From a virus (lineage: Duplodnaviria; Heunggongvirae; Uroviricota; Caudoviricetes), in the IMG/VR virus record IMGVR_UViG_3300032053_000009, positions 18,630 to 82,629 of that record: a stretch of DNA of 64,000 nucleotides. One strand, 5' to 3'. This document shows, piece after piece, positions 17,433 through 63,911 of the stretch. Each line of letters opens with the position of its first letter. Positions within the stretch are counted from its first letter, which is position 1. Made by a program: the position numbers and the translations under genes. Below the pieces are notes generated by a model. That model ran no database searches, had not been told where the DNA came from, and saw only the letters and a program-made list of their open reading frames with translations.

Positions 17433-19282
17433 TCTGCACCCCACTGAGTCCCATCATACGCAAGAATCACGGCTGCGTGATTGGTGGAAATAATTAAATT
17501 CGTGTTGCCATCAATGGTTCCGGCGGCTGGCTGAATAATGATCGGATTTGTCAACGCATCACCTTTTCCATCCTTAATAATAATCTGCTCGCCAATCAAA
17601 GGACTGGACATTAAATTAACAAACGTCGCTTCACTGGCTGCCTTGCGAACAATAATACGATAATCGGTAGACAAAACCGCTATCGCTCCCGAAGCCGTGA
17701 CAACTCGTGTCGTGCCAACCAAATTGGCAATCGAAATCGGATCAGACCCGCCAATATTATGAGTTGAAGCGTGTGCAAAATTTGGAGCCACACCCGTGCT
17801 TATAAACGAAACGTTTTCATTGAGCTGGCGACCTGTGAAGAACGTGACTGTGTTCTGATTCGTTTCCGTGTAATCAACGCCATTGACCATGATCAAGCCA
17901 CCGGAATAAACAACCAAACCACCCGTATTCATGGTATAGGAAAAATTCAAGGCAAAGACAGTCTGATTTGAGGTCGCAACAATTGTTTGACGCTGAAGTG
18001 CGGGAGCGACGACACCATTAGCAATGCGATAAAAAGCGTTCAGCGTGGCGTTGGAAGCAGGCGGCACAGTCATGGTAAAGCCTGGCAAAGACTGGCTTTC
18101 AAAAAAGTCTATGCCATTATCCAGCACCAATCCATTACGAGTCACCATCAGTGTTCCAGCCACAAACGTGGATGGCAGCGTATAGGTAATATTTGCTCCA
18201 TCCGTCGCCCCTGTAGGCAACACATAATCTTGTCGAAGTTCAGCCAACTGGTTGCCGAGAAAGGTAGCCTGAAGTTTATAGAACGCCAACAACGTGTCAT
18301 TCACCTGCGGTGCTACCGTCATTGTAAACCCTGGCTGAGTGGGCTGTTCTGCGTAGTCAACGCCACTCTTAAGCGTCAATCCATTTCTGGTGACAATTAA
18401 TGACCCAGGAACATAATTTTCAGCAAGCGTAAATATAGTATTGGCGCCATTCACCAATCCTGATGGTGTGATTTCAACCCGTGTAAATTCACCGCTGCCT
18501 TGAGTCACAATCCACGTCACGCCATTAAAAAATGAGAACGTCTGCACGTCTGTCCGGTATGCTGGCTGACCAGCAAGCGGACTGGATGGATAAGACGATG
18601 CTGAGCTGAATGGAATTCGGATGGGATCACTGCTCGTCCAGTTATGCGTTGATCCATGAGCCAAATTAGGCTGGATACCTGTGCCAATAAATTGGACGAT
18701 TTCACCAACTTGACGACCTGAAGAAAAGGTCACGGTCGTGCTGTTGGTTTCAGCATAATCAGTCGTGATCAGTTGCCTCAATCCAGTGGAATAAACTTCC
18801 AGACCACCGCTACCAGGCGTATAAGAAAAGTTCAGATTAAAAACTGTCTGACCAGCGGTAGCCACGAATGATTGAGCGACCTTGGTTGGTATGGTGGCGG
18901 TCGCTGTTAAGGAATAAAACGAGATGAGGATTGATCCGGTCAACGGTGCTGACGCCATCGTGAACCCTGGTATCCCAGGCTGCTCAAAAAAGTCCACTCC
19001 ATTTTGAAGCAGCAAACCGTTTCGAGACACCACCAACGAACCAGCATAAAATTGTTCAGGCAAGGTGTAGGTAATGTTGACGCCATTGACAGATCCGGTC
19101 GGGATAATGTTGTCACGTTCTAAAACGCCGCCACCGCTCGTGCCTTGAATCTGAGTCCACGTCACACCATCATAACCGTATAAAAGTTTCGTGTCGGTTT
19201 TGTAGAACAACCGACCGATCTTCAGATCGGTCTGAGGAAAGTTCAAACCTGAGATGTCAAGTTCTTGAGATAAAATACTCAT
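17429..19282 (-). CDS. Mosaic tail/fibre-associated protein with repeated beta modules
   Basis: Three copies of G..NG.N..(Y/F)TL....AGSL.V.RNGL.L..G.D(F/Y) and two of Q.FVAT..QTVF.LNFSY. Confidence 0.8.
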   Translation of the reverse strand: MSILSQELDISGLNFPQTDLKIGRLFYKTDTKLLYGYDGVTWTQIQGTSGGGVLERDNIIPTGSVNGVNITYTLPEQFYAGSLVVSRNGLLLQNGVDFFEQPGIPGFTMASAPLTGSILISFYSLTATATIPTKVAQSFVATAGQTVFNLNFSYTPGSGGLEVYSTGLRQLITTDYAETNSTTVTFSSGRQVGEIVQFIGTGIQPNLAHGSTHNWTSSDPIRIPFSSASSYPSSPLAGQPAYRTDVQTFSFFNGVTWIVTQGSGEFTRVEITPSGLVNGANTIFTLAENYVPGSLIVTRNGLTLKSGVDYAEQPTQPGFTMTVAPQVNDTLLAFYKLQATFLGNQLAELRQDYVLPTGATDGANITYTLPSTFVAGTLMVTRNGLVLDNGIDFFESQSLPGFTMTVPPASNATLNAFYRIANGVVAPALQRQTIVATSNQTVFALNFSYTMNTGGLVVYSGGLIMVNGVDYTETNQNTVTFFTGRQLNENVSFISTGVAPNFAHASTHNIGGSDPISIANLVGTTRVVTASGAIAVLSTDYRIIVRKAASEATFVNLMSSPLIGEQIIIKDGKGDALTNPIIIQPAAGTIDGNTNLIISTNHAAVILAYDGTQWGAE

Positions 19283-46565: not shown

Positions 46566-47102
46566 TTACGCTCCTGTCGTTCCTTGAGCGGGCGTTTCCG
46601 ACGTTCCGTAAACAATCGTGGCGGTTTCAGTTTCCCGAATATCGCCAGTGATGTCACGGGTTGATCCGTAACGGCTGATCCAAGCATCTTTGTAGATCTT
46701 CTGCGTTATCGCAGTTGGAGCCGCATTTGGATTTGGCGTTCCGTCTTGATTGAACACGGGAACGTTGACGATTTCATGGATCTCGAAAGGCGTATCCATC
46801 TCAAACAATGTCCCAACACCCACAGCGGCGCCAAGCGCCTCCATGATGTTTTTCGTGTACAGCCGCAGACGCCGAACTTCCAACGTCTTCTCACGGACGA
46901 GACCAGGCACCATTTCAAATGGTTCCCCGATCTTCTTTCCGAGAGTCGTCCCGATTTCAAACGAAGGCGTGATGTCCCTCGTTTCGGACGGATTGATGCT
47001 TTGAATCGAGCCGACTTCCACCAATGCTCCCGCATCGTTCAGGATTTTGATGGTATAGGAAGTCGCTAACTGTATTCTCGTTGTTGCTGGTTTGATAGCC
47101 AT
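46566..47102 (-). CDS. Tail tube protein
   Basis: VGSIQSINPSETR....FEIG...E.VPG...LEVRRLRLY; follows the sheath. Confidence 0.85.
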   Translation of the reverse strand: MAIKPATTRIQLATSYTIKILNDAGALVEVGSIQSINPSETRDITPSFEIGTTLGKKIGEPFEMVPGLVREKTLEVRRLRLYTKNIMEALGAAVGVGTLFEMDTPFEIHEIVNVPVFNQDGTPNPNAAPTAITQKIYKDAWISRYGSTRDITGDIRETETATIVYGTSETPAQGTTGA

Positions 47103-47129: not shown

Positions 47130-48488
47130 TTAGACCGCAGTGTTGACGAAGATGCTGAACGTCACTTGAATGAAGCGCAACGGAAACACCGGAGCCACTT
47201 CAAACGACACGTTCACCTGGCGAGGATCAACAAGGTCGAGCTTCGCCGTGATGTTACGGAACGCTGTGATGATGCTTGAGCTGATGAAGTTTTGGAGTAT
47301 CGACTGCACGCTGGCTTCGATGTTCTTCGTCGTGCCGCCAAGCAGTTTCGTTCCAATGTACCTCGCATCAAGCGCTGCCCTCACAGTTTTTCGCAACACA
47401 TCTTTTATTCTCCGAACACTGGGTTCCACTCGCTCAATACTGGACACGTCCGTGGTTGATGCTTCTTTCACGTACACGCCACTATCATTCTGTTGGAGAA
47501 TTGTGACCCCAGAGCGAAGCATGAACAGAATTTCGCTTCGGATATATTTGAAGTTGTTGACATCCAATCTTGCTGGCAACTTTTTGCGCAGCAGCGGCGT
47601 GGCAACATCATTGGCTGCTTCAACGCCAGCGAAGGCTGCACCTGCGTAGATGGAAGACACAACCAAACGAACATCTTGGGTCGTGCCAATATCTTTCACG
47701 GTGACGCCAACTGACGCCGGAGCAATGAGATTCACACGGTCGCTTGCGATTTGAGTCGCCATACCGCCAATGGTTTGCACGGTATCATTCAGATTGCTTG
47801 ACGCAATCCAAGCATGACGCTCTTTTTGGTTGAAGTCAGTCGATTGCAATTCGACATGATTGATGACAGCGGTGCGAACTTGTGAGTTCGTCACGCCAGT
47901 CACGATCACGGTATCGACTTCTTCTCTTTCTAATTTCGCCAATGCGTCAATGTAAGAGCTTGTTTGCCCATCCACCGCTTGAACAGCCACAACCACGGTT
48001 CCGTCTCCGCCCGCTTCAAACGCCAACAAAGACGCCAGCGTTATTTCGCTGATGACTCCATTGTTTAATTCAGCGCCATACGTCGCTCTCACGTCGTCGA
48101 TGCTGAAGAACGTTTTTGCGTCATAATAGGAAGCGTCCTTCACTAAGTTGTAAGACACATAGTACGACGCACCTGTGTTCGGCTGTTGTCCTGACGGCAA
48201 CCACTGAACTTGATTATCGTTTTGATTGAAGTCAGTTCCGGCGACAAAGTTGAAATACCCTGGCGCCTCACCAACCCCAATGATCGAAGCTACTTCGCCC
48301 GTGAGCGTGTCTGGAATAATGTCAGAGCCATTGGTTAAGCCTTTGACCGTTTCCACGTTATCAACTTCAACGGTCGCACTGCCTGTACCAACGATTCCGG
48401 CGATATTCTGCACGCCAGGACCAAGAGCCAATGATGGATTTTCGATTTCCGATACAATCACACCAGATTCTTTAACGTTAATAGACAT
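47130..48488 (-). CDS. Tail sheath protein
   Basis: SGVIVSEIE N-terminus; ER.A.I; C-terminal SVRRIKD...RYIGTK...DPRQVNVSFEVAPVFPL.FI.V. Confidence 0.9.
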   Translation of the reverse strand: MSINVKESGVIVSEIENPSLALGPGVQNIAGIVGTGSATVEVDNVETVKGLTNGSDIIPDTLTGEVASIIGVGEAPGYFNFVAGTDFNQNDNQVQWLPSGQQPNTGASYYVSYNLVKDASYYDAKTFFSIDDVRATYGAELNNGVISEITLASLLAFEAGGDGTVVVAVQAVDGQTSSYIDALAKLEREEVDTVIVTGVTNSQVRTAVINHVELQSTDFNQKERHAWIASSNLNDTVQTIGGMATQIASDRVNLIAPASVGVTVKDIGTTQDVRLVVSSIYAGAAFAGVEAANDVATPLLRKKLPARLDVNNFKYIRSEILFMLRSGVTILQQNDSGVYVKEASTTDVSSIERVEPSVRRIKDVLRKTVRAALDARYIGTKLLGGTTKNIEASVQSILQNFISSSIITAFRNITAKLDLVDPRQVNVSFEVAPVFPLRFIQVTFSIFVNTAV

Positions 48489-50070: not shown

Positions 50071-50545
50071 AATCAAGCACCTCGCTCGAAGCCAGCTCAT
50101 TTGGACTGATCAATTTGTCCAACATTGGCGTTAATGGGAAGCCCGATTCCTTAAAAGCCGTATCCACCCAGCCAGAACACACCTTGTGGCACTGGGTCAC
50201 GCCAAATTTTCCCAAAATCATGTTCAAAAAACTGTAGTGGTCGTTGATGTTCATATAGCACCAGTAAATCGCCCGTATTTTGACAGCATCCGAGCACATC
50301 GGGCGATAAATTACTTTCGGTCTCATGTCATCGGCAAAAAACTCAAAATTGGGCCGAGGCCACTTCATCTGAATAATAATGTCCGGCTCCGAACTCACCA
50401 TAGCCACGTGCGTATAGCCTGGGTATTGAACCTTGCCCATTTCCCCGCCGATCTTCTGAAGCCAGGCAAAGAAATTGTGCTTCCAGGCATCATCGTCTGG
50501 ATAAAAAATCAAATCTCCTGGCTTCAGAACATTCACTGCGTTCAT
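50051..50545 (-). CDS. Permuted papain-like NlpC/P60 (YiiX/YebB-like) hydrolase
   Basis: LKPGDLIFY...YTHVAM (His) precedes ...VCSGWV (Cys); I.P..L C-terminus. Confidence 0.8.
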   Translation of the reverse strand: MNAVNVLKPGDLIFYPDDDAWKHNFFAWLQKIGGEMGKVQYPGYTHVAMVSSEPDIIIQMKWPRPNFEFFADDMRPKVIYRPMCSDAVKIRAIYWCYMNINDHYSFLNMILGKFGVTQCHKVCSGWVDTAFKESGFPLTPMLDKLISPNELASSEVLDYVMSST

Positions 50546-51171
50546 TGAAAATACTCCGACAGAATGTTGAAGTACCGAGTCTCGGTTTCGCTCAATCCAT
50601 CAGGACAATGCACGTGAACACGGAGCTTGAGCGACGTTGGAAAGGCCATAGATTCGTCACTAATAAACGGAATTAAAATTCCTTTTGCCAGATAGACATT
50701 TTGAATCATGTTTGGCATATACACCTGGCTGGTGGCAGCCAAAAGAACATCCGTATTGATGTATTCGTCTGGGTCATCCGAGTTCGTGTAACAATATCCG
50801 CCACGGAAATAAACTTGGGTCGGCCAAGAGATATCAACAAACGAATAGGTCATCCCAGGGTCCATGACGACCTGATACCCTTTCCACTTGTTATAAGTGT
50901 TCATGGGCTGTGGCGACATTGACAATCGTTCTGGACGACCTGTGCCAGCTTTCACTTCCAAAGGAGCATTGGCAGTTGATTTGAAATTGGCTTCAAAATC
51001 TGTTTGGTCCGAACCACCATCCTTGGGAATAGTGGTATGCCACAAGAAAGCACCCGCTTCTGGGGCGAACAGGTCATAATTGTCCGGCATTTCTGAATAC
51101 TGAATCAATAACGCCTTGGAAGTCACCAAAGCCTTAAATGCTGTCCAAGATGAAAGCTCCATAATCTGCAT
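50542..51171 (-). CDS. Putative structural protein, paralog B (shared N-terminal domain)
   Basis: MQIMELSSWTAFK...DFEANFK..AN; start via TAATG. Confidence 0.7.
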   Translation of the reverse strand: MQIMELSSWTAFKALVTSKALLIQYSEMPDNYDLFAPEAGAFLWHTTIPKDGGSDQTDFEANFKSTANAPLEVKAGTGRPERLSMSPQPMNTYNKWKGYQVVMDPGMTYSFVDISWPTQVYFRGGYCYTNSDDPDEYINTDVLLAATSQVYMPNMIQNVYLAKGILIPFISDESMAFPTSLKLRVHVHCPDGLSETETRYFNILSEYFQ

Positions 51172-51839
51172 TAGACTTCCCTCCATGTCAGGTTAATTCC
51201 AGCCGGACGGCTGTTCCCGAAACAAGTCAGCGTAAACAGGATGGTATGATTCGGGTCGATGATTAACGGGTCGTCACCAAAATCATATTCCTTAGTTTCC
51301 CCTGTCATGCTATGAAGCGTTTTTGTTTTTGTCCCAAAAGCTGATGTCGTCGGGCTAAGAAACAGGTTCATGGCAGATGATGGCGGTGAGGTCATTGCCT
51401 TTCCCCAAATGGGCGTGTATGCTGTCCCATTCGCTGTCACCGTCGGGTCGTAATAAATCCTGGCCGTGATTGCGCCAGACGTGTTGGACTGGCAAGCAAA
51501 CAGAACTTCATCCATGCGAATAATCTTTCCGCTTGCCGCAGGATTTTTAACCAAAATAATCGGCACTTCGGTTTGGCTTACCGTCACTTCATAGGTCAAA
51601 CGGAATCCATAATTGCCTTCCGCAAAGATGGTCTTGTTGGCGTATGGCTTGTAGTTCGCCTCAAAATCTATCTGGTCAGCTCCACTATCCTTGTAAATCT
51701 TGATATTCCAAAGGAAAATGTCGCCCTCTGGTGCGTAGACATCGTAAAAATTGTCCACCTCCGCATATTGCATCAACAATTGCTTTGCAACAGCCATTGC
51801 CTTGTAGCTTGTCCATGATGTCATTGCCATTATTTGCAT
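51171..51839 (-). CDS. Putative structural protein, paralog A
   Basis: MQIMAMTSWTSYK...DFEANYK..AN; beta-rich C-terminus. Confidence 0.7.
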   Translation of the reverse strand: MQIMAMTSWTSYKAMAVAKQLLMQYAEVDNFYDVYAPEGDIFLWNIKIYKDSGADQIDFEANYKPYANKTIFAEGNYGFRLTYEVTVSQTEVPIILVKNPAASGKIIRMDEVLFACQSNTSGAITARIYYDPTVTANGTAYTPIWGKAMTSPPSSAMNLFLSPTTSAFGTKTKTLHSMTGETKEYDFGDDPLIIDPNHTILFTLTCFGNSRPAGINLTWREV

Positions 51840-51842
51840 AAT

Positions 51843-54800
51843 TTATACCTCGTACCCGCCAAAATTACCCACCCATATCCTGCTTGATGCGCCCGCTGGC
51901 GTCGTCACCCAACGAATGACCGTTCCAGCGGCCACAGGAAGCGGATCACTAAATGGATAAACACCAGGACCGTGGCCAGGCCATTGTCGATAATCACCCA
52001 ATACTTTTGTTCCGCTTGGATTTTCAAAGCTCGCAAGCCCCAAAATATCATTGGAATTGGATGCGGTCGTAAGCGATGCTCCGACCCCGACATATTCAAG
52101 ATAAAGCGTTTTCCCAGCCGTCACCGTATAGGTCAAAATTATTTGGTCTGCGGTTGTCGCTGTTGTCGTCAAACTTCCTGTCTTCATAACGACGGTTTTC
52201 TTGCCAGTCGAAGCGTTAAGACTGGTCGTCAATCCAACCACCTCGTCAAAAATCATTATCGACAGTTGAGCCACTTCTTGAGAAAGCAATGGTCGCAAAT
52301 CAATACCAGAAACAGCCGTATTTGTAATGATTTGGGACAGCTGCTCCACTTCTTGAGAGCCGTAGAGCTGAAGCGTGGTGAGCTGTTGAATTTCAACAAC
52401 AACCGCCGTATTAAGATTGGAAAGCTGTGTAACCTCTTGGCTCAATAGGGGTCTAATGTCGATTCCAGAAGTCGCTGTGTTGGTAATGATTTGGGACAGC
52501 TGGGCCACTTCTTGCGCCAACAGCGTCACTTGGCTGTCGTTTGACACATTCAAAGTTGTCAGCTGTCCAACTTCTTGAGCAAGCGTCACATTGACCGTTG
52601 TGAGTTGAGTTATTTCCAAAGCCACGGCAAGATTCAAGTCGGAAAGCTGAGTCACTTCTTGGCTCAGAAGCGGACGAATGTCAATTCCTGAAACAGACGT
52701 GTTTGTAACAATGCTCGACAGCTGTCCAACTTCCTGCGCCAACAAAGTTATTTGTGCTGTTTGGTTTGCCGCCGTCGCCACGTTCAAATTAAGCGTTGAA
52801 AGCTGGGCAACCTCTTGCGAGCCATAAAGCTGCAAAGTCGTGAGCTGAGTAACTTCCTGCGTCAGCAAGATCACCTGACTGTCATTGGACGCATTTAAGG
52901 TTGATAACTGAGCAACTTCTTGGACCAAGGTCGTATTGACAGTCGTTAATTGCGTCACCTCCAAGGCGACCGCCGCATTGAGATCCGAAAGTTGAGTCAC
53001 TTCTTGCGAAAGCAATGGTCGTATGTCAATACCGGAAACGCTGGTGTTGGTAATAATCTCAGATAGTTGCGCAACTTCCTGCGTCAATAAAGTGGTAAGC
53101 GGCGCAGAACTCGCATCCGCTGTAAGGGTGATAATTGTTGAAAGCTGCCCCACTTCTTGTGACCCATATAATTGAAGCGTTGAAAGTTGAGTGATCTCAT
53201 GAGCCAAATACGCACGAGTATCAATGCCAGACACTGCCGTATTGACAATTATTTGAGACAACTGCGCCACTTCTTGTGAACCGTAGAGCTGAAGCGTTGT
53301 CAATTGAGTGACTTCAACAACAATGGCCGTATTCAAATCGGAAAGCTGTGTGACTTCCTGTGAGAGCAGAGGGCGCAGGTCGATATCAGAAACGCCAGTG
53401 TTAGTGATGATTTGGCTTAACTGGCCCACTTCTTGAGCCAGAATAATCATGGTATCCGTGAAGCCAGCCGCTGTCGTGGCTATCTGCGTCCGAGCCAAGC
53501 CTTCCAACTCATCGGTGTTTACATCAATGTCGCCAATGTTAATGGACAAACCCTTCAACTCCTGAAGCACACTTAATTGAGTGACTTCAGTCGCCACACG
53601 AATTTGCAGATCAGAAAGTTGGCCAACCCCTTGCGCCAGCAAAACATTTCCATCGGTTTGGTTAATTTCAACCACACTCAACTGGGACACGGCTTGAAAT
53701 CCATAAAGCTCAAGCGTGGATAATTGTTCAACCTGATGACTCAAAATAGGCGTCGTATCGACAGCAACTGTTCCAGTGTTGGTTATTATTTGGCTAAGCT
53801 GAGCTACTTCCTGGGCAACCAAATTCTGAACATTGGTAAATCCATTAGCGATTGTGGCTGTCTGAAGTCTTGTTAAATTTTCCAAGTCGTCAGTATTGAG
53901 ATCGATATCGCCAATGTTAATGGACAGCCCGCTCAGCGATTGAAGCACACTCAGCTGAGTCACCTCGGTTGCTAAACTGGTTTGTAAATCCGAAAGCTGA
54001 GCCACCTCTTGTGCCAACAATGCCCCGCTATCAATTTGGTTAATCTCCACCTGGCTGAGCTGGCTCACCATTTGAGACTCATAAAGCAAGGTCGTGGACA
54101 GCTGAGTGATCTGATTCATCGTTGTCAGGTCGATGGTTGTCAGCTGCGAAATCTCCAACGAAACGGACACATTCAAGTTGCTAAGCTGGTCCACCTGCTG
54201 CGAGCCATAAAGTTCAAGCGTTGAGAGCTGCGTCACTTGATGGCTAAGGAGCTGGGTCGTATCGATTCCGCTTGCGCTCGTGTTGGTAATGATTTGGCTT
54301 AGCTGTGCAATCTCTTGAGACATCAAAGCGCTGTTGCTGACTTGATTGAGTTCAATTTGGCTGAGCTGAGATACTTCTTGGCCGAGCAATAAATAAACAT
54401 TGGTGAACCCTTCCACGGTCGCCAAGATAACGTTGGTCAATCCCTCCGCATTGGACGCTTGGAACTGGCGTGTCAAATCTTCAAGCTGGTCAGTGTTTAC
54501 ATCCACATCCCCAATCGTAATGGACAATCCTTGAAGCTCACTGATGATGGTAGAAAGTTGTCCAACTTCAAAGGCAACATTCGGAGACAGCAAACTGGTG
54601 TTGATTTCAATTTGTGAAAGCTGAGCCACTTGCTGGTCCAGGCTGGGGCTGGTGACGGTCGCAACCGTGTTAATTTTGGCTATGAAATAAGTGACACGGA
54701 CATTGTTGGCTGGTGAGGCCGGAATCGCAGCCGTTGTTACGATTATTTGTCCAGACACTGTAAACGACGTAAAACCTGTCCAATTGATTCCATCAGCCGT

Positions 54801-54998
54801 TATTTCAATGACAACATTGGTTAGGACGGGAGTGTGGGACAAAAGAAATTGCTGCCCAACGGCGTTGTTTCCAGTATATTTTTCCTGAATAGAAAAGAAC
54901 GCACCAATGACTTGGAGCGAATTGTCTCTGACCCGTGCCGCTTCTTTCGTAAGCGGGTCTCTAATGAATAAATCCGAAGATACGCCTTCAAAGCTCAT
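51843..54998 (-). CDS. Large QEVTQLS-repeat fibre protein (putative trimeric coiled-coil whisker or head fibre)
   Basis: 1051 aa; dozens of (Q/L)EV(T/A)QL(S/T) motifs mostly 14 aa apart; globular N- and C-terminal domains. Confidence 0.75.
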   Translation of the reverse strand: MSFEGVSSDLFIRDPLTKEAARVRDNSLQVIGAFFSIQEKYTGNNAVGQQFLLSHTPVLTNVVIEITADGINWTGFTSFTVSGQIIVTTAAIPASPANNVRVTYFIAKINTVATVTSPSLDQQVAQLSQIEINTSLLSPNVAFEVGQLSTIISELQGLSITIGDVDVNTDQLEDLTRQFQASNAEGLTNVILATVEGFTNVYLLLGQEVSQLSQIELNQVSNSALMSQEIAQLSQIITNTSASGIDTTQLLSHQVTQLSTLELYGSQQVDQLSNLNVSVSLEISQLTTIDLTTMNQITQLSTTLLYESQMVSQLSQVEINQIDSGALLAQEVAQLSDLQTSLATEVTQLSVLQSLSGLSINIGDIDLNTDDLENLTRLQTATIANGFTNVQNLVAQEVAQLSQIITNTGTVAVDTTPILSHQVEQLSTLELYGFQAVSQLSVVEINQTDGNVLLAQGVGQLSDLQIRVATEVTQLSVLQELKGLSINIGDIDVNTDELEGLARTQIATTAAGFTDTMIILAQEVGQLSQIITNTGVSDIDLRPLLSQEVTQLSDLNTAIVVEVTQLTTLQLYGSQEVAQLSQIIVNTAVSGIDTRAYLAHEITQLSTLQLYGSQEVGQLSTIITLTADASSAPLTTLLTQEVAQLSEIITNTSVSGIDIRPLLSQEVTQLSDLNAAVALEVTQLTTVNTTLVQEVAQLSTLNASNDSQVILLTQEVTQLTTLQLYGSQEVAQLSTLNLNVATAANQTAQITLLAQEVGQLSSIVTNTSVSGIDIRPLLSQEVTQLSDLNLAVALEITQLTTVNVTLAQEVGQLTTLNVSNDSQVTLLAQEVAQLSQIITNTATSGIDIRPLLSQEVTQLSNLNTAVVVEIQQLTTLQLYGSQEVEQLSQIITNTAVSGIDLRPLLSQEVAQLSIMIFDEVVGLTTSLNASTGKKTVVMKTGSLTTTATTADQIILTYTVTAGKTLYLEYVGVGASLTTASNSNDILGLASFENPSGTKVLGDYRQWPGHGPGVYPFSDPLPVAAGTVIRWVTTPAGASSRIWVGNFGGYEV

Positions 54999-56152
54999 GC
55001 TGTGCCTCCATTGGCATAAATCTGCAAATCAACGGGAATCGTTGATGTCGTCACAAACATTGTGTCCGTGTTTTGCTCCTCAAAAGTAAATCTCCCGTTC
55101 GCCAAATTGATTGCCGGATTGGATATAGAGCCAAACTTTACCGACACCGGATTGCTCGTCGCAAAATACACATCCTGCATCCGAACCCCAAAATTGTATG
55201 TCACATCCGTTAAGCCCGCTGGCTGCGTTGTCTCAAAAGCATAATACTTTCCGTGCGGAGCCGATGTCGTTATTGACAGCCCTTCCAATGTCTGCAACAC
55301 GCTCAGTTGTGTGACTTCTTGATTCAGCGTGGTGGAACTGAAGTTAAAGCACAGCCCTTCCAAATCATAAAGGATGCTGAGTTGAGTGACCTCCTGCGCC
55401 AGTGACGTAGAATCCAAATTAACACAGAGACCCGACAGCTCTTGGAAAATGCTGAGCTGTGTTTGTTCCGTCGCCAGCCGCATCTGCAAATCAGAGAGTT
55501 GAGTCACCTCCTGCGCTTCAAGCGCCAGAACATTGGTTAAGCCTTCCGCAATCGTCCCTGTTTGAATTCGAGTCAGGGTTTCCAGCTCGTCCGTATTGAC
55601 ATTTACATCCCCAACAGAAACAGACAACCCATCCATTGCCGCCAGGATACTCAGCTGCGTCACTTCCTGGTTGAGCGATGGTGCGTTAAAGCACAACCCC
55701 TTCAACTCTTGAAGGACGCTCAACTGTGTAGCTTCCGTGGCGACGGTCGTTATCAGGTCAGACATCTGCGCCACCTGCTGCGAAGCCAGGACCAGTCCTT
55801 GTAAGATCAAATCAATCTGCGTCAGCTGGCTGGCCTCCAACGCCAACGTGGGACTGGTCAAGCTCAAATTCCAAGTCCCATCAAGGTTAGGCGTGGCCAA
55901 AAGGTCGTGCTTGTTCCCCAGTGAATCAACGCCCTGAATGATGACCTTTCCAATCGTTATGGGCGGCAGCGCTATTTCCGTGTTGGATGCCAGGGCATAC
56001 TGATCCGTGGTCCCATCTATCAACGAAACGTTGATGGGAACAATAACACCATCCGAGCGCTGGCCCGCCAATACAGCAACGTATTCGGAGTCAGCACTCC
56101 GTGGAAAGTGCTTCTTGTTTAGATCAGGATGCCAAGTTGGAAATATCTCCAC
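54995..56152 (-). CDS. Shorter QEVTQLS-repeat protein
   Basis: 385 aa; same repeats and GL..S.GD..VNTDELE knot; GTG start. Confidence 0.75.
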   Translation of the reverse strand: MEIFPTWHPDLNKKHFPRSADSEYVAVLAGQRSDGVIVPINVSLIDGTTDQYALASNTEIALPPITIGKVIIQGVDSLGNKHDLLATPNLDGTWNLSLTSPTLALEASQLTQIDLILQGLVLASQQVAQMSDLITTVATEATQLSVLQELKGLCFNAPSLNQEVTQLSILAAMDGLSVSVGDVNVNTDELETLTRIQTGTIAEGLTNVLALEAQEVTQLSDLQMRLATEQTQLSIFQELSGLCVNLDSTSLAQEVTQLSILYDLEGLCFNFSSTTLNQEVTQLSVLQTLEGLSITTSAPHGKYYAFETTQPAGLTDVTYNFGVRMQDVYFATSNPVSVKFGSISNPAINLANGRFTFEEQNTDTMFVTTSTIPVDLQIYANGGTA

Positions 56153-56155
56153 CTA

Positions 56156-58618
56156 TCAACTCACCCCCGCTGGTTGAAGCTCTTTTTTGGCCTGAGCTTC
56201 TTTAAGCCGTTGCAGCGTCAGCTCAATCGCTTTCAAATTATCGTCAATCTTTTTAATGTGAGACGGATGACTATTGGTTCCGATATTCATTTTTGCTTTC
56301 GAGAACGCCTCATGAGCTTCATCATATTGGCCACGATTAAACAAGATGACGCCAATATCATTCCAGGCACCCCACAACTTTGGATCAAGCTCAACCGTCT
56401 TCCTGTACAGGATAAGCGCTTCATCAAACTTTTTCGTGTGATAAAGATGAATCGCCCGAATAAAAAACGGACGAGGATCTTTAGGCGTCAGCTCGCACTG
56501 ACGTTCAGCCAGCTTGTAATACCAATCATGCTTGGCGTTCAGGGAATGCTTCTCTTTCAAATATCCAAAATGATAGAGAGGCGTTTCTGTTCGCACGATA
56601 TTGACCTTGCGCACTTTGCCCAACTCAACCAAGCTGTCGTCAATGTCTTCATGCACAAGTCTCGTGTAGAAAATACGAGGATCGTTGACGAACATTCGCA
56701 GTGTTTCAGATAACACCCAATTTGAATCCCATCCTTTCACGTGCGGATCTTCCTGATAGTTACGAATCGGGAACAGATAAGCATCCACGTTTTCTCGTTG
56801 CGCCAACTTCCAAATGTTAAAGAGTTGATCCCGTGGTATCACTTCATCCGCATCAAGCCGCAATATCCAAGGCTTTGTGCACGAACGCACCGCTGCGTTA
56901 CGAGGCTCGGCAAAGCCTTGCGTTGGAATGTCCCAAGGAAATTCAATCACCCTGGCGCCAAGCGATTTGGCGATTTCAACAGTCTTGTCCGTGCTTCCGG
57001 TATCGCACACCACCACTTCGTCAGCGATAGCCAGCCCGCTTTTAATCGCTCGCTCAATGTTTTCCTCTTCATTTTTAGCCATGATGCTTAAGCTAAGTTG
57101 ATTGTACCGAGGCAGCTTTTTCTTCCAGTCATTGAATTTGGTCAGCTCGTCATTAAACCGTTTGTCCTCATCTTCAATGCGCTTAGCCTCAATTTCTGGC
57201 GACTCTTTATAGCCGTCCGGCTTCTCCAAATGATCCGGCGTACAGTGCGTGTCTGCCCAGAGCTTATAGCCAGCACAGATCGCCCGTGTGCAGAAGTCCC
57301 GATCTTCACCACGCATATTGCTTGGCAAATTTGGCACCCTGGTATAGCTGACGCCCTTCTCTACTACCTCTTTCCATATCAGCGTGCACGCCCCCAAGCC
57401 ACCCACTGGATACATCCCAGGACGCTTCAACATAGAGATAAAATCATTGCTGATTTCATACCCGCCACGAATCCAAACGTTCGGAAGCGGCTGAGCATCT
57501 TTGTGACCCCAAATCGCCCAAAACACTTCGGACACGATTGGTCGTTCAAGCCCAACCATATGCTTCACAATGCGTGGGTGGCGAATAATGATGTCTGAGT
57601 CGATCATGAACAGCGCTTCCGAGCTGAACTTGTGCAGCGACGCCAGCGCACGATTCCTCATGTAAGCCATGTTTGCCAGCTTCTGATCTTCCCACGTGTG
57701 CTCTTTGTCAGAAGCGTTGCCGAAGTTGATGGTCTCGATCTCAATGAGCTTGTATATTTTGTCCTTCAACGCCGCCCACGTTTTCAGCTTTTCATGCGTG
57801 TCATCATAAGAGTCATTGACAATAAAATAGAAACTCAGCTTGTCCTTGGGGTAATCAATACTCTCCAACCCTTCCAAGAACCGATCCAAAACCCAGCCAC
57901 GATTGCGCAAAAGCGAAGCCACCAAAATCGGCGGCCACTCAATCTCGTCCTTAAATGGCTTGAGCTTGGGCGCCATAAAAATGGAATGAGCGTGCTCAAG
58001 ATTGATCCCTGTCGCCCGCTGAAGATAGAACTCGTACTTGCGCTCCTTATCAGCGTCTTTTGCCCATCCCCAATGATTCAAAAACAGATCCGAACGAGCT
58101 GTACCATTTAGAGTCTCGGCAATGTACCGAGGCACGCAGCCGCAATGAATGGCGCCCGCAAAGCCAAACGGCTGATCCTTGTACCGGAAGAGCCGTGTGA
58201 TGAGCGGACTCCAATACCCATCCACCCTGTACTCGTTCTCATTCCACATATCCAAGAGCCGAACCGAATACCAATCGTACTTGTCGGTCTTGATCAGCTC
58301 CGGCAGCTCCTTTATAAAGCTGTCGCTGAATGTTTCGTCAGCGTCTTGACTGATGATCCAATCCCCTTCTTTGGCAAACTTCTTTGTCAATTCCCATTGC
58401 ACGTTGCGAAGTTTTGATTCATCAATTCCGAACATAGACTGGTCAAACGGCGACGTAAAAAACGTCACCTTGGGATACGACCGACAAATTTCCTCGGTCT
58501 TGTCCGTGCTGCGATCATCCAGAACAAGAATCTTGTCTGCAAACTTCGACGCATTGTCAAGAACCCGTTTCAGGTATCTGTCGGCTTCATTGCGAAGCAT
58601 TATTTGAGTAATGATCAT
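56156..58618 (-). CDS. Tri-domain GT-A glycosyltransferase (three GT2-like domains) with C-terminal TPRs
   Basis: RNEAD...DDRSTD...QDADE; LRNRG...IDSD...GED; KNEE...DTGSTD...LDADE; TPR-like helices at the C-terminus. Confidence 0.9.
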   Translation of the reverse strand: MIITQIMLRNEADRYLKRVLDNASKFADKILVLDDRSTDKTEEICRSYPKVTFFTSPFDQSMFGIDESKLRNVQWELTKKFAKEGDWIISQDADETFSDSFIKELPELIKTDKYDWYSVRLLDMWNENEYRVDGYWSPLITRLFRYKDQPFGFAGAIHCGCVPRYIAETLNGTARSDLFLNHWGWAKDADKERKYEFYLQRATGINLEHAHSIFMAPKLKPFKDEIEWPPILVASLLRNRGWVLDRFLEGLESIDYPKDKLSFYFIVNDSYDDTHEKLKTWAALKDKIYKLIEIETINFGNASDKEHTWEDQKLANMAYMRNRALASLHKFSSEALFMIDSDIIIRHPRIVKHMVGLERPIVSEVFWAIWGHKDAQPLPNVWIRGGYEISNDFISMLKRPGMYPVGGLGACTLIWKEVVEKGVSYTRVPNLPSNMRGEDRDFCTRAICAGYKLWADTHCTPDHLEKPDGYKESPEIEAKRIEDEDKRFNDELTKFNDWKKKLPRYNQLSLSIMAKNEEENIERAIKSGLAIADEVVVCDTGSTDKTVEIAKSLGARVIEFPWDIPTQGFAEPRNAAVRSCTKPWILRLDADEVIPRDQLFNIWKLAQRENVDAYLFPIRNYQEDPHVKGWDSNWVLSETLRMFVNDPRIFYTRLVHEDIDDSLVELGKVRKVNIVRTETPLYHFGYLKEKHSLNAKHDWYYKLAERQCELTPKDPRPFFIRAIHLYHTKKFDEALILYRKTVELDPKLWGAWNDIGVILFNRGQYDEAHEAFSKAKMNIGTNSHPSHIKKIDDNLKAIELTLQRLKEAQAKKELQPAGVS

Positions 58619-58636
58619 TTGTTTCTCCTTGTGTTT

Positions 58637-59332
58637 TCAGTTTTCATTTACGTATTCCTCTACAGTCGCCGGAGTAGTGATTGATTTGGCATGTTCCAAA
58701 TTAACCCCATCCGCACGACCGTCAAGATAAAATTGTTGTTTGGCTAACCGTTTGTCTTCGTTAGCCCAGCCCCAATGAATAATCTTTATGTCCCGCCGCT
58801 CAGTGCCGTTTGCACTGTCCACGATATACTTCGGCAAAAGCGGAACGTGATTAACCGCTGTCGGCAACTCCGCTGGCAAATTCTTATATCGAAAGAAAAC
58901 CTCTTTCACTGGCGACCAATATCCATCCACCCTGTACGTTGTCGGCGACCACATATCCAAAAGCCGAAACCGGAACCAATCGTGTTCAGATGCCATCAGC
59001 TCCTTAACTTTTAAGGTGAATGACTTTTCTATTTCTTCATCAGCGTCAAGCGCCAAAATCCAATCCCCATCTTTGGCAATCTCGCACGTTTTCTGCCACT
59101 GCACTTCACGAAACTTCGGCTCATTGATCGGATACATCGGAACATCAAAGGGCGATTCACGAAATAGAATATTCGGAAACGACCGACACACCGATCTCGT
59201 GGCGCCTCCGTCATCGCTCTTATCGTCCAAGATCATGACGTAATCAACAGCGTCGGTAATAGAAGTCAGCACCTTCACAAAGTAAGAATTGTGAGCTTCA
59301 TTACGCACGATCATGGATGCCACGATAGCCAT
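58637..59332 (-). CDS. GT2-like glycosyltransferase, paralog of domain 1 of the 820-aa enzyme
   Basis: VRNEA...DDKSDD...LDADE...RLLDMW...YRVDGYWSP...HWGWA shared with the neighbour. Confidence 0.9.
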   Translation of the reverse strand: MAIVASMIVRNEAHNSYFVKVLTSITDAVDYVMILDDKSDDGGATRSVCRSFPNILFRESPFDVPMYPINEPKFREVQWQKTCEIAKDGDWILALDADEEIEKSFTLKVKELMASEHDWFRFRLLDMWSPTTYRVDGYWSPVKEVFFRYKNLPAELPTAVNHVPLLPKYIVDSANGTERRDIKIIHWGWANEDKRLAKQQFYLDGRADGVNLEHAKSITTPATVEEYVNEN

Positions 59333-59962
59333 TTATTTCTCCAACACTACGCCATAGACAGCCAATTGATCGACATGACAATCAATGTCGAACTCACGAC
59401 TGGTCAACACATCCACGGGAAGCACCGGAGTAATACCAAGATTTCCTGCGAACTTGGTAAAGTCGGCCAACGAGAACTGATACGGGCTTGGCTCAATGCT
59501 GACATCCACGGTGAGATAAAAACGACACCCTGGCTTGAGCACTCTCATACACTCATTGAACGTCTCCATCGGATCATTGCCTACGTGCTCCAAAACGCTG
59601 ATGCAAAAAACAGCATCAAAGTTATTGTCTGGGAACGGCATTTTTCTAACATCCGAAACACACGGAACGAGATTTGGAAGCTCTTGTTCGTGCACAGCAA
59701 TCGCTGGGTCGATGTCAACATTAACGACCTTCTTCACTTTCTTGCACAGATACCGCTGAAACACGGAATGACCGCCGCCCGCATCCAGCACGACATGATC
59801 AATGTCCAGATAAGTGTCCTGAAGTATGATCCACGGGTACTCCCATTGACGGCTCCACGCCAGCCGACCTTTGTTCAGCATCTCCAAGTCTTTCTTCATG
59901 GAGACGAACTCCGGCTTAAGCAGATCCGTTTTGAGTCCATATGTATGCGATATGACTTTCAT
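59333..59962 (-). CDS. Class I SAM-dependent methyltransferase (Methyltransf_11-like)
   Basis: R.WEYPW...VLDAGGG; MPFPDNNFDAVFCISVLEH; RVLKPG. Confidence 0.9.
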   Translation of the reverse strand: MKVISHTYGLKTDLLKPEFVSMKKDLEMLNKGRLAWSRQWEYPWIILQDTYLDIDHVVLDAGGGHSVFQRYLCKKVKKVVNVDIDPAIAVHEQELPNLVPCVSDVRKMPFPDNNFDAVFCISVLEHVGNDPMETFNECMRVLKPGCRFYLTVDVSIEPSPYQFSLADFTKFAGNLGITPVLPVDVLTSREFDIDCHVDQLAVYGVVLEK

Positions 59963-59965
59963 CGT

Positions 59966-60847
59966 TTATCCGACAACATTCAACTCGTGCGCCCAGTACG
60001 CACCTTCAACGCCGTTTTCCCACTTCACCATAAACGAGCCGTCCTTGTTTTTCTTCTGAACGATCCCTTGATGAGCACCTTTCGCCACCGTCGCTAACCG
60101 AGTCACGGGCTTGTACCCTTCTTCTTTGGGAACGACAAATGAGGCTTTCTTGTCCATCTTCGGAACCGACAACGCATTCAACACCGCCGTCGCTATACGT
60201 AACGACGCCTCTCTCTTTTTGTTTTTGTCTATGAATTCATCGAGAGTTGTTTTCTCGTTGGCGTTCCCAAACTTCTTAAATGAACAATATTCCTTTTGCT
60301 CCGCCTTCATGTAGAACGGACAAGCGCTGTCACCGAATGTGCCTCGGCACGCATGAATCTCAATTTTGACCTCATCCATCGGACAAATGGGAGCTTCTGA
60401 CTTCAGCTCTGCAAACACTTCAACGCCAGCCTTCGCTACCTTGGCGTTGTCGATACGAACCAAAGCGAATCCAGATTCCCAATCCAAATCAATAATGGAT
60501 GCCTTTTTTTGATATTTCTTGTTCACGTAAGCCAGCACTTCACGAGAAATGGTATTAGCATCCCAGTTTGTACTGTTCGTGTTTTTCAAGTCCCATTGCG
60601 CCGCCACAAAAAGAGCGTCATCTGCTGCCGCATAATGAGACCATTGCTCTGTCACTTTGCCAGACTCCACGGCTTGGAATTCTGTTGGTTCGTTCTGAGG
60701 TCGTGCCTCCCATACCGTCTTCGTCATATTCCACTTCCAAGACTTACCAGCACCAGGATCGGTCGTCGGTTTTGGAACGGATGGACGCTGTGCCACCCTA
60801 TGATGTCTTTGCTCCTTTAATGTTTGGAGCCGATCTTTAATGTTCAT
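59966..60847 (-). CDS. Hypothetical head-region protein with C-terminal SH3-like domain
   Basis: 293 aa; HQGIVQKK...FMVKWENG...YWAHEL. Confidence 0.65.
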   Translation of the reverse strand: MNIKDRLQTLKEQRHHRVAQRPSVPKPTTDPGAGKSWKWNMTKTVWEARPQNEPTEFQAVESGKVTEQWSHYAAADDALFVAAQWDLKNTNSTNWDANTISREVLAYVNKKYQKKASIIDLDWESGFALVRIDNAKVAKAGVEVFAELKSEAPICPMDEVKIEIHACRGTFGDSACPFYMKAEQKEYCSFKKFGNANEKTTLDEFIDKNKKREASLRIATAVLNALSVPKMDKKASFVVPKEEGYKPVTRLATVAKGAHQGIVQKKNKDGSFMVKWENGVEGAYWAHELNVVG

Positions 60848-60878: not shown

Positions 60879-62858
60879 TTACTTCGACGGCTGCTCTGAC
60901 ATACAAAGCGACCGACGTTGCAGGTAATCTTCTATTTCTAAAGCCTCATATACGTCAGGATCTTTCAGTGTCGGTTCTCTAAATTGGACAAATACCATCC
61001 ACTTCTTATGTTCCGTGCTCAACTCCGCTTGCGCCTGAACAAATGAAATGCACTCTGACCCGTCATCGTTAGCAATCAAACCATTCAGATCAGGCTTGCT
61101 CCTGGTGGGGGTTCCTGGGGGTAAATCGGGAGCGGACTCTCCTGGCTTGGCGGCCTCTCCTCGTCCTTCTTCTTTCGTCGTTTTTTCTTCGGGAGCGGTT
61201 TCGGTTCTTCGGGTAGAGGGTTTTTCTTGTCCTCCGGCTTTGACTCTATCGAGTCTTGCATTGGCAACCTCCAAAATAATTTTCGAGGCATCGGCAATCA
61301 TTTCGGCGGCGTTTCCATATTCCTGTTTCATGCTGGTTCGGAAATCAACCAACCCAACAGTGATGTCTTCAGGATCAATAAATCGTAGTTCGCCACTCGG
61401 CGTCTCGTTATCGACAGCCCAATAACGAATGCTGTCCACGGTGTCAATGTGTCCCAGCGCCTTGTAATATTCCAAATTGGCGTCATAGGAATCCCAAAGG
61501 ATCTGAAATTGATCCGGCGACAATGATTGATCCGCCGCAGACCGCACACCGTAATCAAGTCTGCTCTTCAAGCCTTTGCCTTCTAAAATGCTTTCGTCGT
61601 AATAGCGACGATCAATATCCTTCATGATCTCGTCTTCGGTTTTGTGACGCACAAATTCAATTTCATTCGGATGAACTTCAAAAATCTCCTGACCGTTAAT
61701 CGGTCTGTTCCAGCGAACCACGATGTCGATGTCGGCTTCGTGGTGCATCTTCGATATGGCAATCACCTCGCCCTCGGTGCTGGTGTTGATGTCCTTAACA
61801 ATATCCCCGACCGTTATCAAAAGCGTCTTCTCATCTTCAGCGCTAAATCGGTTCAAAGAATAATTGCCGTACCCGTCCTGAACCATTGTGCCTTTGCGCA
61901 TCAAGCCAAAGAGATGTTCTGGCGGATAAGCTAAATTGGATTTCTTCATTAAGGAAAGAAGGTACGGCGCCGCACGCTGAACGAACGACGGAATGTTCCT
62001 GGGATGAACTTCGCCGCAGTCGTTCACGAGTCCGTGAAATACAGCCAGCTCTTTTTTATCAGACACGACCGACAGCAAGTCCTCAAGGCTGAACGCCACG
62101 TCAAACGCCGACATCTTAAATGCCCTGCGACACCACGGGTTATAAACAGCCCTCACAAACAGCGGCGAAATGGCTGCTTTGGGCACGAAAAACGACACAT
62201 CTGCGTCACCATCTGACGGCACGCCTTCAACCGCATTGGGGGGCACTTTCACGATCACGACCTGATAGCCACGATGATTGGCTGCCACGCCAATTGAATC
62301 CGTCAAGGTCTCACTCTCCGGCACCCCGTTAGCCACCGGATCAGCAAAGCGGCTCACAGCGGCGTACAGCGTCAGCGACGCCTGCGTAGATGACAGCTCG
62401 TGATGAGGCAGGTTCAAAAACAATTCCACCATCTCCCACGCTTCATCAAATTTACCTTTGTCGATCAGATCCTTGAACTTCCTCAAATCCTCTTCATCCG
62501 CCCGTTGAATAAACTGAGCCGTCTCCATGACACCCATCCAACCAGGATAAAACAGGGATTGACGCTTTATGGATGACCGGATGTGAATCGGTGGGTTGTA
62601 AATAGACAATATGCGGTCGGCAGCAATCACTTTTTTGGTGTACATTCCGAGAGATCCAACCGACACAATGTGCTCGCCAGGAACGTCAACCTCAACCACC
62701 ACGGGCTTGCCTCCCGACAGCGCCCGCAACGAAGCGAAGAAAACGGCTTCATTGAGCGATGATGTCAACCACGCTGGCTGCTTATTTTCCCAGTCCCAAA
62801 GCCCATGTTTTGAAATCTTGTCTACGAGTGCGTCTGTTGTTCCGTGATAAACTTTCAT
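60879..62858 (-). CDS. Multidomain protein with N-terminal ADP-ribosyltransferase-fold (KptA/Tpt1-like) domain and a degenerate second copy
   Basis: KVYHGT...I..HGL...WLTSSL.EA..FA...VVVEVDVP; second copy LYAAV...LTDSI.VA...VVIVKVP...VYNP. Confidence 0.65.
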   Translation of the reverse strand: MKVYHGTTDALVDKISKHGLWDWENKQPAWLTSSLNEAVFFASLRALSGGKPVVVEVDVPGEHIVSVGSLGMYTKKVIAADRILSIYNPPIHIRSSIKRQSLFYPGWMGVMETAQFIQRADEEDLRKFKDLIDKGKFDEAWEMVELFLNLPHHELSSTQASLTLYAAVSRFADPVANGVPESETLTDSIGVAANHRGYQVVIVKVPPNAVEGVPSDGDADVSFFVPKAAISPLFVRAVYNPWCRRAFKMSAFDVAFSLEDLLSVVSDKKELAVFHGLVNDCGEVHPRNIPSFVQRAAPYLLSLMKKSNLAYPPEHLFGLMRKGTMVQDGYGNYSLNRFSAEDEKTLLITVGDIVKDINTSTEGEVIAISKMHHEADIDIVVRWNRPINGQEIFEVHPNEIEFVRHKTEDEIMKDIDRRYYDESILEGKGLKSRLDYGVRSAADQSLSPDQFQILWDSYDANLEYYKALGHIDTVDSIRYWAVDNETPSGELRFIDPEDITVGLVDFRTSMKQEYGNAAEMIADASKIILEVANARLDRVKAGGQEKPSTRRTETAPEEKTTKEEGRGEAAKPGESAPDLPPGTPTRSKPDLNGLIANDDGSECISFVQAQAELSTEHKKWMVFVQFREPTLKDPDVYEALEIEDYLQRRSLCMSEQPSK

Positions 62859-63386: not shown

Positions 63387-63911
63387 ATGAAAACAGCTAA
63401 AATATGGCGCCCAGATCTGGGACGGTACGTCGAAGTTGACGCCGCCGTCGTTGAAAAAATCAAAGCCGCCTCAAAAATCAAGAACGCTCGCAACCTCTTA
63501 CACAAAGAATCAGCACAAACATTCTTTCAGCGAGTCAACATCATTGATCTTGCGTTTCGCCTCTTCTTCTTTTTCGGTATTGTCTGCCCGTGTGTCGGGA
63601 TTGTTATTTACGGCTTCGTTCAATCCGTCGGTACACAAACCTCTCTCCAAGTGCTGGCTCTTCTTGGCGTTCTTGTTGGCATCATGTTCGTACTTGTCGT
63701 GCTCTGCTACCTCAGCCAATTGCCCGCCAACGAGCTTTCTCTTGGCTTAACTGTCGGCACCTTCATCAAAGCTATTGTCATGACGCCAATCGCCTTAATC
63801 GGCTCGTTCTTTGTCGCCAAAGCCCCCAAAGGCACCGTGGGCGCTGGCGGCATCGTCTCCGACATGATTAATGACGCTGGCGAAATCATTGACAAGGTGA
63901 AACACAGATGA
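63387..63911 (+). CDS. Membrane protein (2-3 TM helices)
   Basis: Hydrophobic segments around aa 55-140; GGAGG SD. Confidence 0.75.
   Translation: MKTAKIWRPDLGRYVEVDAAVVEKIKAASKIKNARNLLHKESAQTFFQRVNIIDLAFRLFFFFGIVCPCVGIVIYGFVQSVGTQTSLQVLALLGVLVGIMFVLVVLCYLSQLPANELSLGLTVGTFIKAIVMTPIALIGSFFVAKAPKGTVGAGGIVSDMINDAGEIIDKVKHR

Follow-up and report, generated by a model that had tools for sequence, protein, structure and literature searches.

A candidate virion-glycosylation module with a fused triple glycosyltransferase in the structural operon of an uncultured myovirus

We analysed a 64,000-nucleotide stretch of DNA (the window), bases 18630-82629 of the 146,629-bp linear IMG/VR virus record IMGVR_UViG_3300032053_000009, which CheckV rates as 84% complete; coordinates are window positions unless marked genome. 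Between the head genes and the tail sheath gene of a myovirus, the window carries genes for a class I S-adenosylmethionine (SAM)-dependent methyltransferase (MTase), a stand-alone glycosyltransferase (GT) of 231 aa, and an 820-aa enzyme in which three GT-A domains are fused to tetratricopeptide repeats (TPRs). Genes for two fibre-like proteins with QEVxQLS-type repeats follow directly. The best reading of this arrangement is that the enzymes glycosylate protein of the phage's own virion. In its full form, to which we give roughly even chances, the module would be cytoplasmic and co-expressed with the virion genes, and the two QEVxQLS fibres would be its likeliest acceptors.

The 820-aa enzyme was compared with known proteins by profile, sequence and fold. 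Pfam matches covered residues 10-98 (GT2_4), 230-365 (Anp1) and 511-644 (Glycos_transf_2), with TPR matches at about residues 700-776. The DXD motif of each of the three domains was invariant among 23 aligned homologues, as were many further residues, and the enzymes look catalytically intact. An AlphaFold2 (AF2) model with a predicted local distance difference test score (pLDDT) of 89.7 comprised three GT-A units of Rossmann-like fold, followed by a C-terminal domain made of helices. Hydrophobic segments in the transmembrane range were absent from the enzymes (Kyte-Doolittle 19-residue maximum, KD19, 1.27). Searching the domains one by one, as the first-pass annotation had proposed, placed domain 3 with its TPRs closest to GmaR and SunS/ThuS, and domain 2 closest to COLGALT1/Anp1. 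In phmmer searches of the PDB, the nearest sequences to domain 3 were GmaR (22ao, E 1.4e-19), SunS (7msp, E 7e-12) and ThuS (E 3e-9), and the nearest to domain 2 was the N-terminal GT domain of the human collagen galactosyltransferase COLGALT1 (E 3e-7). Foldseek returned SunS as the best match (E 4e-19; template modelling score TMt 0.70 over 310 columns), with COLGALT1 (E 5.5e-19), ThuS, LH3, the chondroitin polymerase K4CP, mimivirus R699 and yeast Mnn9 (E 6.5e-13) among the other top folds. COLGALT1, LH3 and Mnn9 act on proteins. Domain 3 and the C-terminal region together form a GT-A domain directly followed by a TPR/helical domain, with no predicted membrane segment, as in enzymes of the GmaR/SunS type. 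By sequence and by model, the nearest characterised relatives mostly glycosylate proteins or peptides, and the TPR domain is presumed to be an acceptor-binding module.

The 231-aa protein matched the Pfam GT2_4 profile (PF13704) weakly (E 0.003, below the cut-off by itself). Its 43% identity to residues 2-225 of the 820-aa enzyme (P0003; E 9e-63) marks it as a real GT-A paralogue, which provides the fourth GT-A domain; the aligned DADE motif is present. The MTase carries a Methyltransf_11/25 domain above cut-off and is a candidate sugar (or protein) methylase of the module. Open reading frames (ORFs), Pfam matches, paralogy and DXD motifs thus confirm the three enzymes that the first-pass annotation had named. 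Since four intact GT domains are accompanied by an MTase, a multi-sugar, methylated glycan is a reasonable inference.

The genes of interest all lie on the minus strand and are densely packed, with a maximum gap of 18 nt and several overlaps from the MTase gene to the 214-aa gene; gene coordinates in Table 1 correspond exactly to ORF boundaries. In order of transcription, proteins of 147, 659 and 293 aa without assigned function precede the MTase, which is followed by the 231-aa GT, the 820-aa GT, the 385-aa and 1051-aa repeat proteins, proteins of 222, 214, 164, 302 and 257 aa, and then the tail sheath and tube. Baseplate genes and a large set of tail-fibre paralogues lie farther downstream. 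The major capsid gene shares the operon with the MTase/GT block, and with head genes upstream and the tail sheath downstream, the placement inside the structural operon that had been proposed for the block is borne out. Likewise, the earlier remark that nucleotide-sugar and base-modification genes are missing nearby can be extended, as no epimerase, NTP-transferase or ThyA-like gene was found in the whole 146.6-kb record (84% complete). Because the record contains no sugar-supply genes, the phage must use host nucleotide sugars.

To place the block in a wider context, we read ten GT-bearing loci: the window, L004, L094, L001/L002, L005, L006, L007, L003, L013 and one further contig. Relatives were located solely through protein databases, and about 35 full-length proteins in public data share the three-GT architecture; pattern scans of IMG/VR with one protein at a time, the GT or the 385-aa protein, gave no matches. 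GT homologues (36-92% identity) lay within a virion structural module in all ten phage contexts, in sheath-bearing and in sheathless (tape-measure-protein-type) layouts alike. To judge from this gene order, the GT family is tied to virion structural modules over deep divergence and two tail types. L004 (75% identity) and L094 (77%) keep the entire layout including the adjacency of GT and fibre, with homologues of the 1051-aa protein (854 and 1036 aa, respectively) directly after the GT. The 231-aa GT is present in L094; L004 lacks it and has an HNH gene in its place. Homing-endonuclease genes (HNH, NUMOD3) lie at the MTase/GT junction in both (L004:9462-10010; L094:4174-4929 and 17214-18074). 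The myovirus relatives at 43-46% identity (L001/L002, L005, L006) retain the GT upstream of the sheath, and L001/L002 and L005 retain the MTase too; an MTase homologue adjoins the triple GT in L001/L002, L004, L005 and L094. The fibres of the 43-46% relatives differ from those of the window: they are 644-1017 aa long, contain 23-27% Ser/Thr and SASGLTINGTV-like repeats, and are encoded 2-6 genes upstream of the GTs, on the opposite side from the window's fibres (right after the capsid gene in L006). Ser/Thr-rich (23-27%) repeat fibres are encoded 0-6 genes from the GTs in every myovirus relative. We also noted a conserved 168-aa protein encoded directly after the triple GT (L001:10605-11111, L005:12609-13115, L006:12509-13015). 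Its homologue in the window's phage forms part of a 254-aa gene product (genome 85539-86303). Since that homologue sits three genes after the capsid gene here, the GT/fibre block has moved relative to it.

Sheathless relatives carry the GTs in a different setting. In L007 (40% identity), four GT genes lie upstream of the tape-measure gene, amid those for connector and neck, and the neck and tail genes downstream of the GT in L003, L013 and one further contig are homologous to those of L007. The latter three contain a sugar-pathway cassette of about 10 kb directly upstream of the triple GT (L003:1-10000, L013:1-10000 and the further contig). Taken together, the cassettes encode NeuB, a PIG-L deacetylase, ATP-grasp and radical SAM/SPASM proteins, several MTases, LicD, cytidylyltransferases, epimerases and an ABC importer with its binding protein; one cassette GDP-mannose dehydratase bears a LAGLIDADG intein. 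L003 is filed in NCBI within a metagenome-assembled genome, but its neck and tail genes mark it as phage DNA.

The two proteins encoded directly after the triple GT were described in the first-pass annotation as an extremely S/T/Q-rich repeat pair. The repeats and the adjacency were verified, whereas 'extremely' overstates the composition: S+T amounts to 20-22% and S+T+Q to 27-32%, against 9-15% in neighbours, an approximately twofold enrichment. Strict QEVxQLS-type motifs number 28 in the 1051-aa protein (shuffle mean 0.12, maximum 2) and five in the 385-aa protein (shuffle mean 0.01), and core motifs are mostly spaced 14, 21 or 25 residues apart. Tandem Repeats Finder detected no array in the DNA; therefore the repeats are old and kept at the protein level, their nucleotides having diverged. 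Hydrophobic periodicity in the repeat region, which bears on a possible trimeric coiled coil as in fibritin-like whiskers, was not above that of shuffles, and searches of Pfam and PHROG gave no meaningful match to either protein. For the 1051-aa protein, whole or as its N-terminal domain, ESM Atlas scores of 0.81-0.86 or less provide leads only. The AF2 model of the 385-aa protein had an overall pLDDT of 42.8, with helices at residues 101-241 at pLDDT of about 30 and a C-terminal beta-sandwich at residues 300-385 at pLDDT 76-87. Spike and turret domains of SH1, STIV, PM2 and HFTV1 resemble this C-terminal jelly-roll to a middling degree (Z about 8). A trimer prediction for residues 95-385 scored 0.01, at a fold confidence too low to weigh either way. 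The 385-aa family is tiny (22 relatives among 1.84 billion representative proteins), and its C-terminal domain recurs on small proteins.

Several of these segments are shared with other fibres. Two QEVxQLS proteins (P0131, P0135) have an N-terminal anchor in common with the otherwise unlike, Ser/Thr-rich 752-aa fibre of L006, and tblastn showed that the C-terminal domain of the 222-aa protein also ends large fibres of L004 (854 aa), L001 (430-aa and 933-aa proteins) and L006. The QEVxQLS proteins and their relatives are, on this evidence of shared segments, modular virion projections with shuffled modules; the actual receptor-binding tail fibres are apparently encoded by the set of paralogous genes at 14-36 kb. 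All three Cys residues of the 385-aa protein fall in GLC[FV]N, where paralogous repeats and relatives show GLS[IV], and the motif could mark a structural knot or a place of modification. This Cys/Ser alternation recalls the S/O-glycosylating relatives SunS and ThuS. A gene for a small Cys-containing peptide (a glycocin-type product) was not noticed in the ORF lists of the block, which were not searched for one systematically.

A chromosomal counterpart of the enzyme set was found in bacteria. Among 185,579 species genomes, the best cellular relatives of the phage enzyme came from Bacillota (Desulforamulus, Desulfosporosinus, Sporomusa, Lucifera, Paenibacillus), with 28-31% identity over residues 1-750; this affinity is a weak hint to the phage's host. 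The annotated loci of Desulforamulus putei (L014:4461-13852) and Desulfosporosinus paludis (L016:5311-14054) are chromosomal and contain three GT2-TPR genes and an Anp1+GT2 gene, and the MTase of L014 is 31% identical to the phage MTase (E 2e-13). Proteins with DUF6385 (PF19912), described as a single jelly-roll domain (PMC13700489), flank the GTs in five of the five loci in which the domain was found (L014, L015, L016, L025, L028), and one of them carries a CBM96 domain. The Desulforamulus DUF6385 protein contains GLTIT/GLSIT repeats, and the corresponding proteins of L016 and L028 are motif-rich too. By gene content, these loci pair the enzyme set a second time, and independently, with a Ser/Thr-repeat protein that is tipped by a jelly-roll, and the module resembles a surface-protein glycosylation system that is apparently uncharacterised. 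The pentapeptide G-[LVI]-[STC]-[IVF]-[NTS] is present in 6-15 copies in the Bacillota DUF6385 repeat proteins; among 638 phage ORFs, the seven highest counts all belonged to GT-adjacent fibres. It is a weak candidate for an acceptor motif and could be a mere beta-strand signature. BLAST matches of the phage fibres to the Desulforamulus DUF6385 repeat protein vanished under composition correction; they reflect compositional likeness, and homology on this basis was rejected.

Table 1. Features of the candidate glycosylation block and of the surrounding structural genes (window positions unless marked genome).
Feature	Position	Strand	Remarks
820-aa enzyme, three GT-A domains and TPRs	56156-58618	-	
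GT-A domain 1, aa 1-225, GT2_4 type	57944-58618	-	PF13704 63.5 bits (cut-off 27.5); invariant D35, D92-x-D94-E95
GT-A domain 2, aa 226-470, Anp1/GT62-like, COLGALT1 N-domain-like	57209-57943	-	PF03452 40.3 bits (cut-off 28.8); invariant D340-x-D342
GT-A domain 3, aa 505-690, GT2, GmaR/SunS-like	56549-57106	-	PF00535 112.7 bits (cut-off 23.3); invariant D589-x-D591-E592
C-terminal TPR/helical domain, aa 691-815	56174-56548	-	TPR_1, TPR_2 and TPR_17 matches; AF2 helices 690-813
Stand-alone GT-A glycosyltransferase, 231 aa	58637-59332	-	Paralogue of domain 1 of the 820-aa enzyme
Class I SAM-dependent MTase, 209 aa	59333-59962	-	PF08241 E 4e-20, 72.7 bits; PF13649 54.7 bits
385-aa fibre-like protein	54995-56152	-	N-terminal beta domain, QEVTQLS repeat shaft with GLC/GLS 'knots', C-terminal jelly-roll
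1051-aa fibre-like protein	51843-54998	-	28 strict / 37 core QEVxQLS-type motifs and C-terminal beta domain
222-aa protein	51171-51839	-	C-terminal domain with NPxASGK...TANGT motif; phrog_5335
214-aa protein	50542-51186	-	N-terminal ~70 aa common to the 222-aa protein and small fibre-adjacent proteins of relatives
Tail sheath	47130-48488	-	phrog_2839 E 3.9e-38; marks the downstream end of the head-to-tail region, five genes past the fibres
Tail tube	46566-47102		
Major capsid gene	genome 88298-89299		Outside the window; nine called ORFs upstream of the MTase
Protease	genome 90893-92665		Upstream, just past the window end
Portal	genome 93305-95197		Upstream, just past the window end

In the mechanism we propose, the four GT-A domains (one stand-alone, three fused) would add sugars in turn from host nucleotide sugars while the TPR domain holds the protein acceptor, and the SAM-dependent MTase would methylate the glycan. 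The product would be a short methylated oligosaccharide on exposed virion proteins, most likely on the two QEVxQLS fibres encoded directly downstream, perhaps at their G-L-(S/C)-(I/V/F)-(N/T) 'knots'. From the sequences, we infer that the acceptor is a protein, that it belongs to the virion and which protein it is, together with the order of the sugars and a role in shielding or adhesion.

The self-glycosylation reading offered by the first-pass annotation thus stands as regards the enzymes, their likeness to protein GTs and their place among structural genes, but the fibres as acceptor are only partly supported. GTs and fibres, on whose linkage that part depends, are found together in the myovirus relatives but not in more distant ones: the siphovirus relatives L007, L003 and L013 have no long fibre gene beside the GTs, and a distant QEVxQLS-like protein in L095 has no GT within 16 kb. 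A GT block unlinked from fibre genes in homologous phages had been named in the first-pass annotation as grounds for refutation, and the distant relatives thus provide such grounds in part. Other observations also weigh against the reading. GT2 enzymes make cell-wall polymers too, and as the record is 84% complete, genes not found may sit in the missing part. The pentapeptide was defined after the sequences had been seen, its copies lie in repeats and are not independent, and the L006 fibre has none. Homology between DUF6385 and the phage fibres is not established: Pfam DUF6385 did not match the phage fibres at E <= 1; a custom DUF6385 hidden Markov model (HMM) gave sub-threshold hmmsearch values (E 0.2-1.7), although its top matches were GT-adjacent fibres; and hhalign returned 74% probability over 17 columns only.

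If virion protein is the target, the acceptors might instead be capsid, decoration, tail tube or sheath, or neck proteins, as in mycobacteriophages, with the fibres mere neighbours. We regard this as possible but unlikely. The GTs of the siphovirus relatives lie amid connector, neck and tube genes with no long fibre adjoining, the major capsid gene is in the same operon here, and the tail tube of the window ends in a Ser/Thr-rich tail (11 of 30 residues) that recalls the C-terminal glycosylation of mycobacteriophage tube proteins (PMC12619734). The end of the major capsid protein, by contrast, has no Ser/Thr-rich segment, no such tail occurs on the tubes of the siphovirus relatives, and Ser/Thr-rich fibres occur near the GTs in every myovirus relative. 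It is rather doubtful that the enzymes act late on a host structure such as wall teichoic acid, S-layer, flagellin, pilin or a DUF6385-type surface protein, masking receptors for superinfection exclusion or so that progeny do not stick to debris, with the operon position incidental. Such a role would suit the cell-envelope or O-antigen conversion annotation that most GT2 enzymes and PHROG neighbours carry, the LicD, cytidylyltransferase and ABC-transporter genes of the siphovirus relatives, which are typical of teichoic-acid/phosphocholine decoration, and the adjacency of the cellular homologues to cellular DUF6385 proteins. It fits less well with enzymes that are predicted to be soluble and have no membrane anchor, with a block that abuts or overlaps the surrounding virion genes, and with a head-tail position conserved over two morphotypes down to 36-46% identity. 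Moron-type genes seldom show such conserved placement.

Glycosylation of the phage's own DNA (hypermodified bases) against restriction is very improbable, and was rejected as unlikely because no hydroxymethylase was found and the relatives of the enzymes act mostly on proteins or peptides. Many phage GTs do modify DNA (Pyle 2024, as cited in PMC12619734), and a hydroxymethylase could be encoded in the missing part of the 84% complete record. The 146.6 kb at hand nevertheless contain no ThyA-like hydroxymethylase, the TPR domain, like the closest solved relatives, speaks for a protein or peptide as acceptor, the block belongs to the structural operon rather than to the replication module, and the cellular counterpart module has no DNA-modification context. 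A broader and, in our estimate, improbable proposal would unite the phage and bacterial loci. A single cytoplasmic multi-GT/TPR family with its MTase would serve both the Bacillota DUF6385 repeat proteins and the phage fibres through a short G-L-(S/T/C)-(I/V)-(N/T)-type acceptor motif found again and again in repeats that are otherwise unrelated; phages of several morphotypes, some with a full nonulosonic-acid/phosphocholine-type sugar pathway, would have captured the host module and would use it to give their own projections a coat of host-like glycan that serves mimicry, shielding or adhesion, and the Cys/Ser alternation would denote mixed S-/O-glycosylation as in ThuS.

Other features of the region were recorded. 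The 659-aa (60879-62858) and 293-aa (59966-60847) proteins encoded just upstream of the MTase are conserved (51% and 61% identity in L004), and neither had a meaningful match in Pfam, PHROG or a PDB sequence search; the 293-aa protein has a Cys-rich segment at about residues 160-200. A lone plus-strand ORF of 174 aa (63387-63911) breaks the otherwise minus-strand structural operon. A promoter and terminator scan of 46-64 kb gave nothing above shuffle expectation at informative places, and near-identical DNA was not found in the phage collection.

Virion glycosylation by a phage is a known kind of system. Phage-encoded GTs glycosylate the mycobacteriophage capsid and tail tube (Freeman 2023, as cited in PMC12363180 and PMC12619734), the tube proteins at the C-terminus (PMC12619734). 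In Che8, Corndog and Myrna, as here, phage GTs are proposed or shown to decorate the phage's own virion proteins, and host nucleotide sugars are presumably used in both cases. The enzymes are what is new: those of the window have no detectable similarity to Mycobacterium phage proteins, including the GTs of Che8, Corndog and Myrna, and differ in architecture, with three GT-A domains fused to TPRs and an accompanying MTase in the structural operon. A tblastn search with the 820-aa enzyme against 50,697 phage records, which include hundreds of Mycobacterium phages, returned 15 matches, none from that group. The proposed acceptors differ as well, being fibres here and capsid or tube C-termini in mycobacteriophages.

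GmaR of Listeria, an O-GlcNAc transferase in which an N-terminal GT domain is followed by TPRs, transfers GlcNAc onto flagellin (PMC9638930); SunS and ThuS are glycocin S-glycosyltransferases. Like domain 3 with its TPRs, GmaR and SunS/ThuS combine a GT2 GT-A domain with a TPR/helical domain; they are cytoplasmic and use a protein or peptide acceptor, as is predicted for the phage enzyme. They are, however, single-GT enzymes that add one sugar, whereas the phage enzyme has two extra upstream GT-A domains and is only about 20% identical to them; GmaR, unlike the phage enzyme, has an additional anti-repressor domain (PMC9638930). Mimivirus R699 and multi-GT proteins of giant viruses were among the fold matches of the phage enzyme. 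In chlorovirus PBCV-1 A064R and giant-virus fibril enzymes, several GT domains (with a methyltransferase in A064R) build a capsid or fibril glycan without host machinery. These belong to eukaryotic viruses and to other GT families with other acceptors, and the phage MTase is a separate gene; the likeness is confined to the GT-A fold. The Bacillota module (Desulforamulus putei, Desulfosporosinus paludis, Sporomusa, Paenibacillus) shares the same domain types, a homologous MTase and an adjacent Ser/Thr-repeat protein ending in a jelly-roll, but is chromosomal rather than viral and has its domains split over 4-5 genes instead of fused.

To our knowledge, actinobacteriophages are so far the only phages demonstrated to glycosylate their own particles, which blunts antibody recognition. 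If the reading of virion-protein glycosylation is correct, the trait would be widespread and independently evolved among phages, since it would involve an unrelated enzyme family in diverse uncultured myo- and siphoviruses, and would bear on host recognition, environmental stability and phage therapy. The locus offers a compact, predicted-soluble three-in-one glycosyltransferase with a defined candidate acceptor, and also points to what may be an uncharacterised protein-glycosylation system in spore-forming Bacillota.

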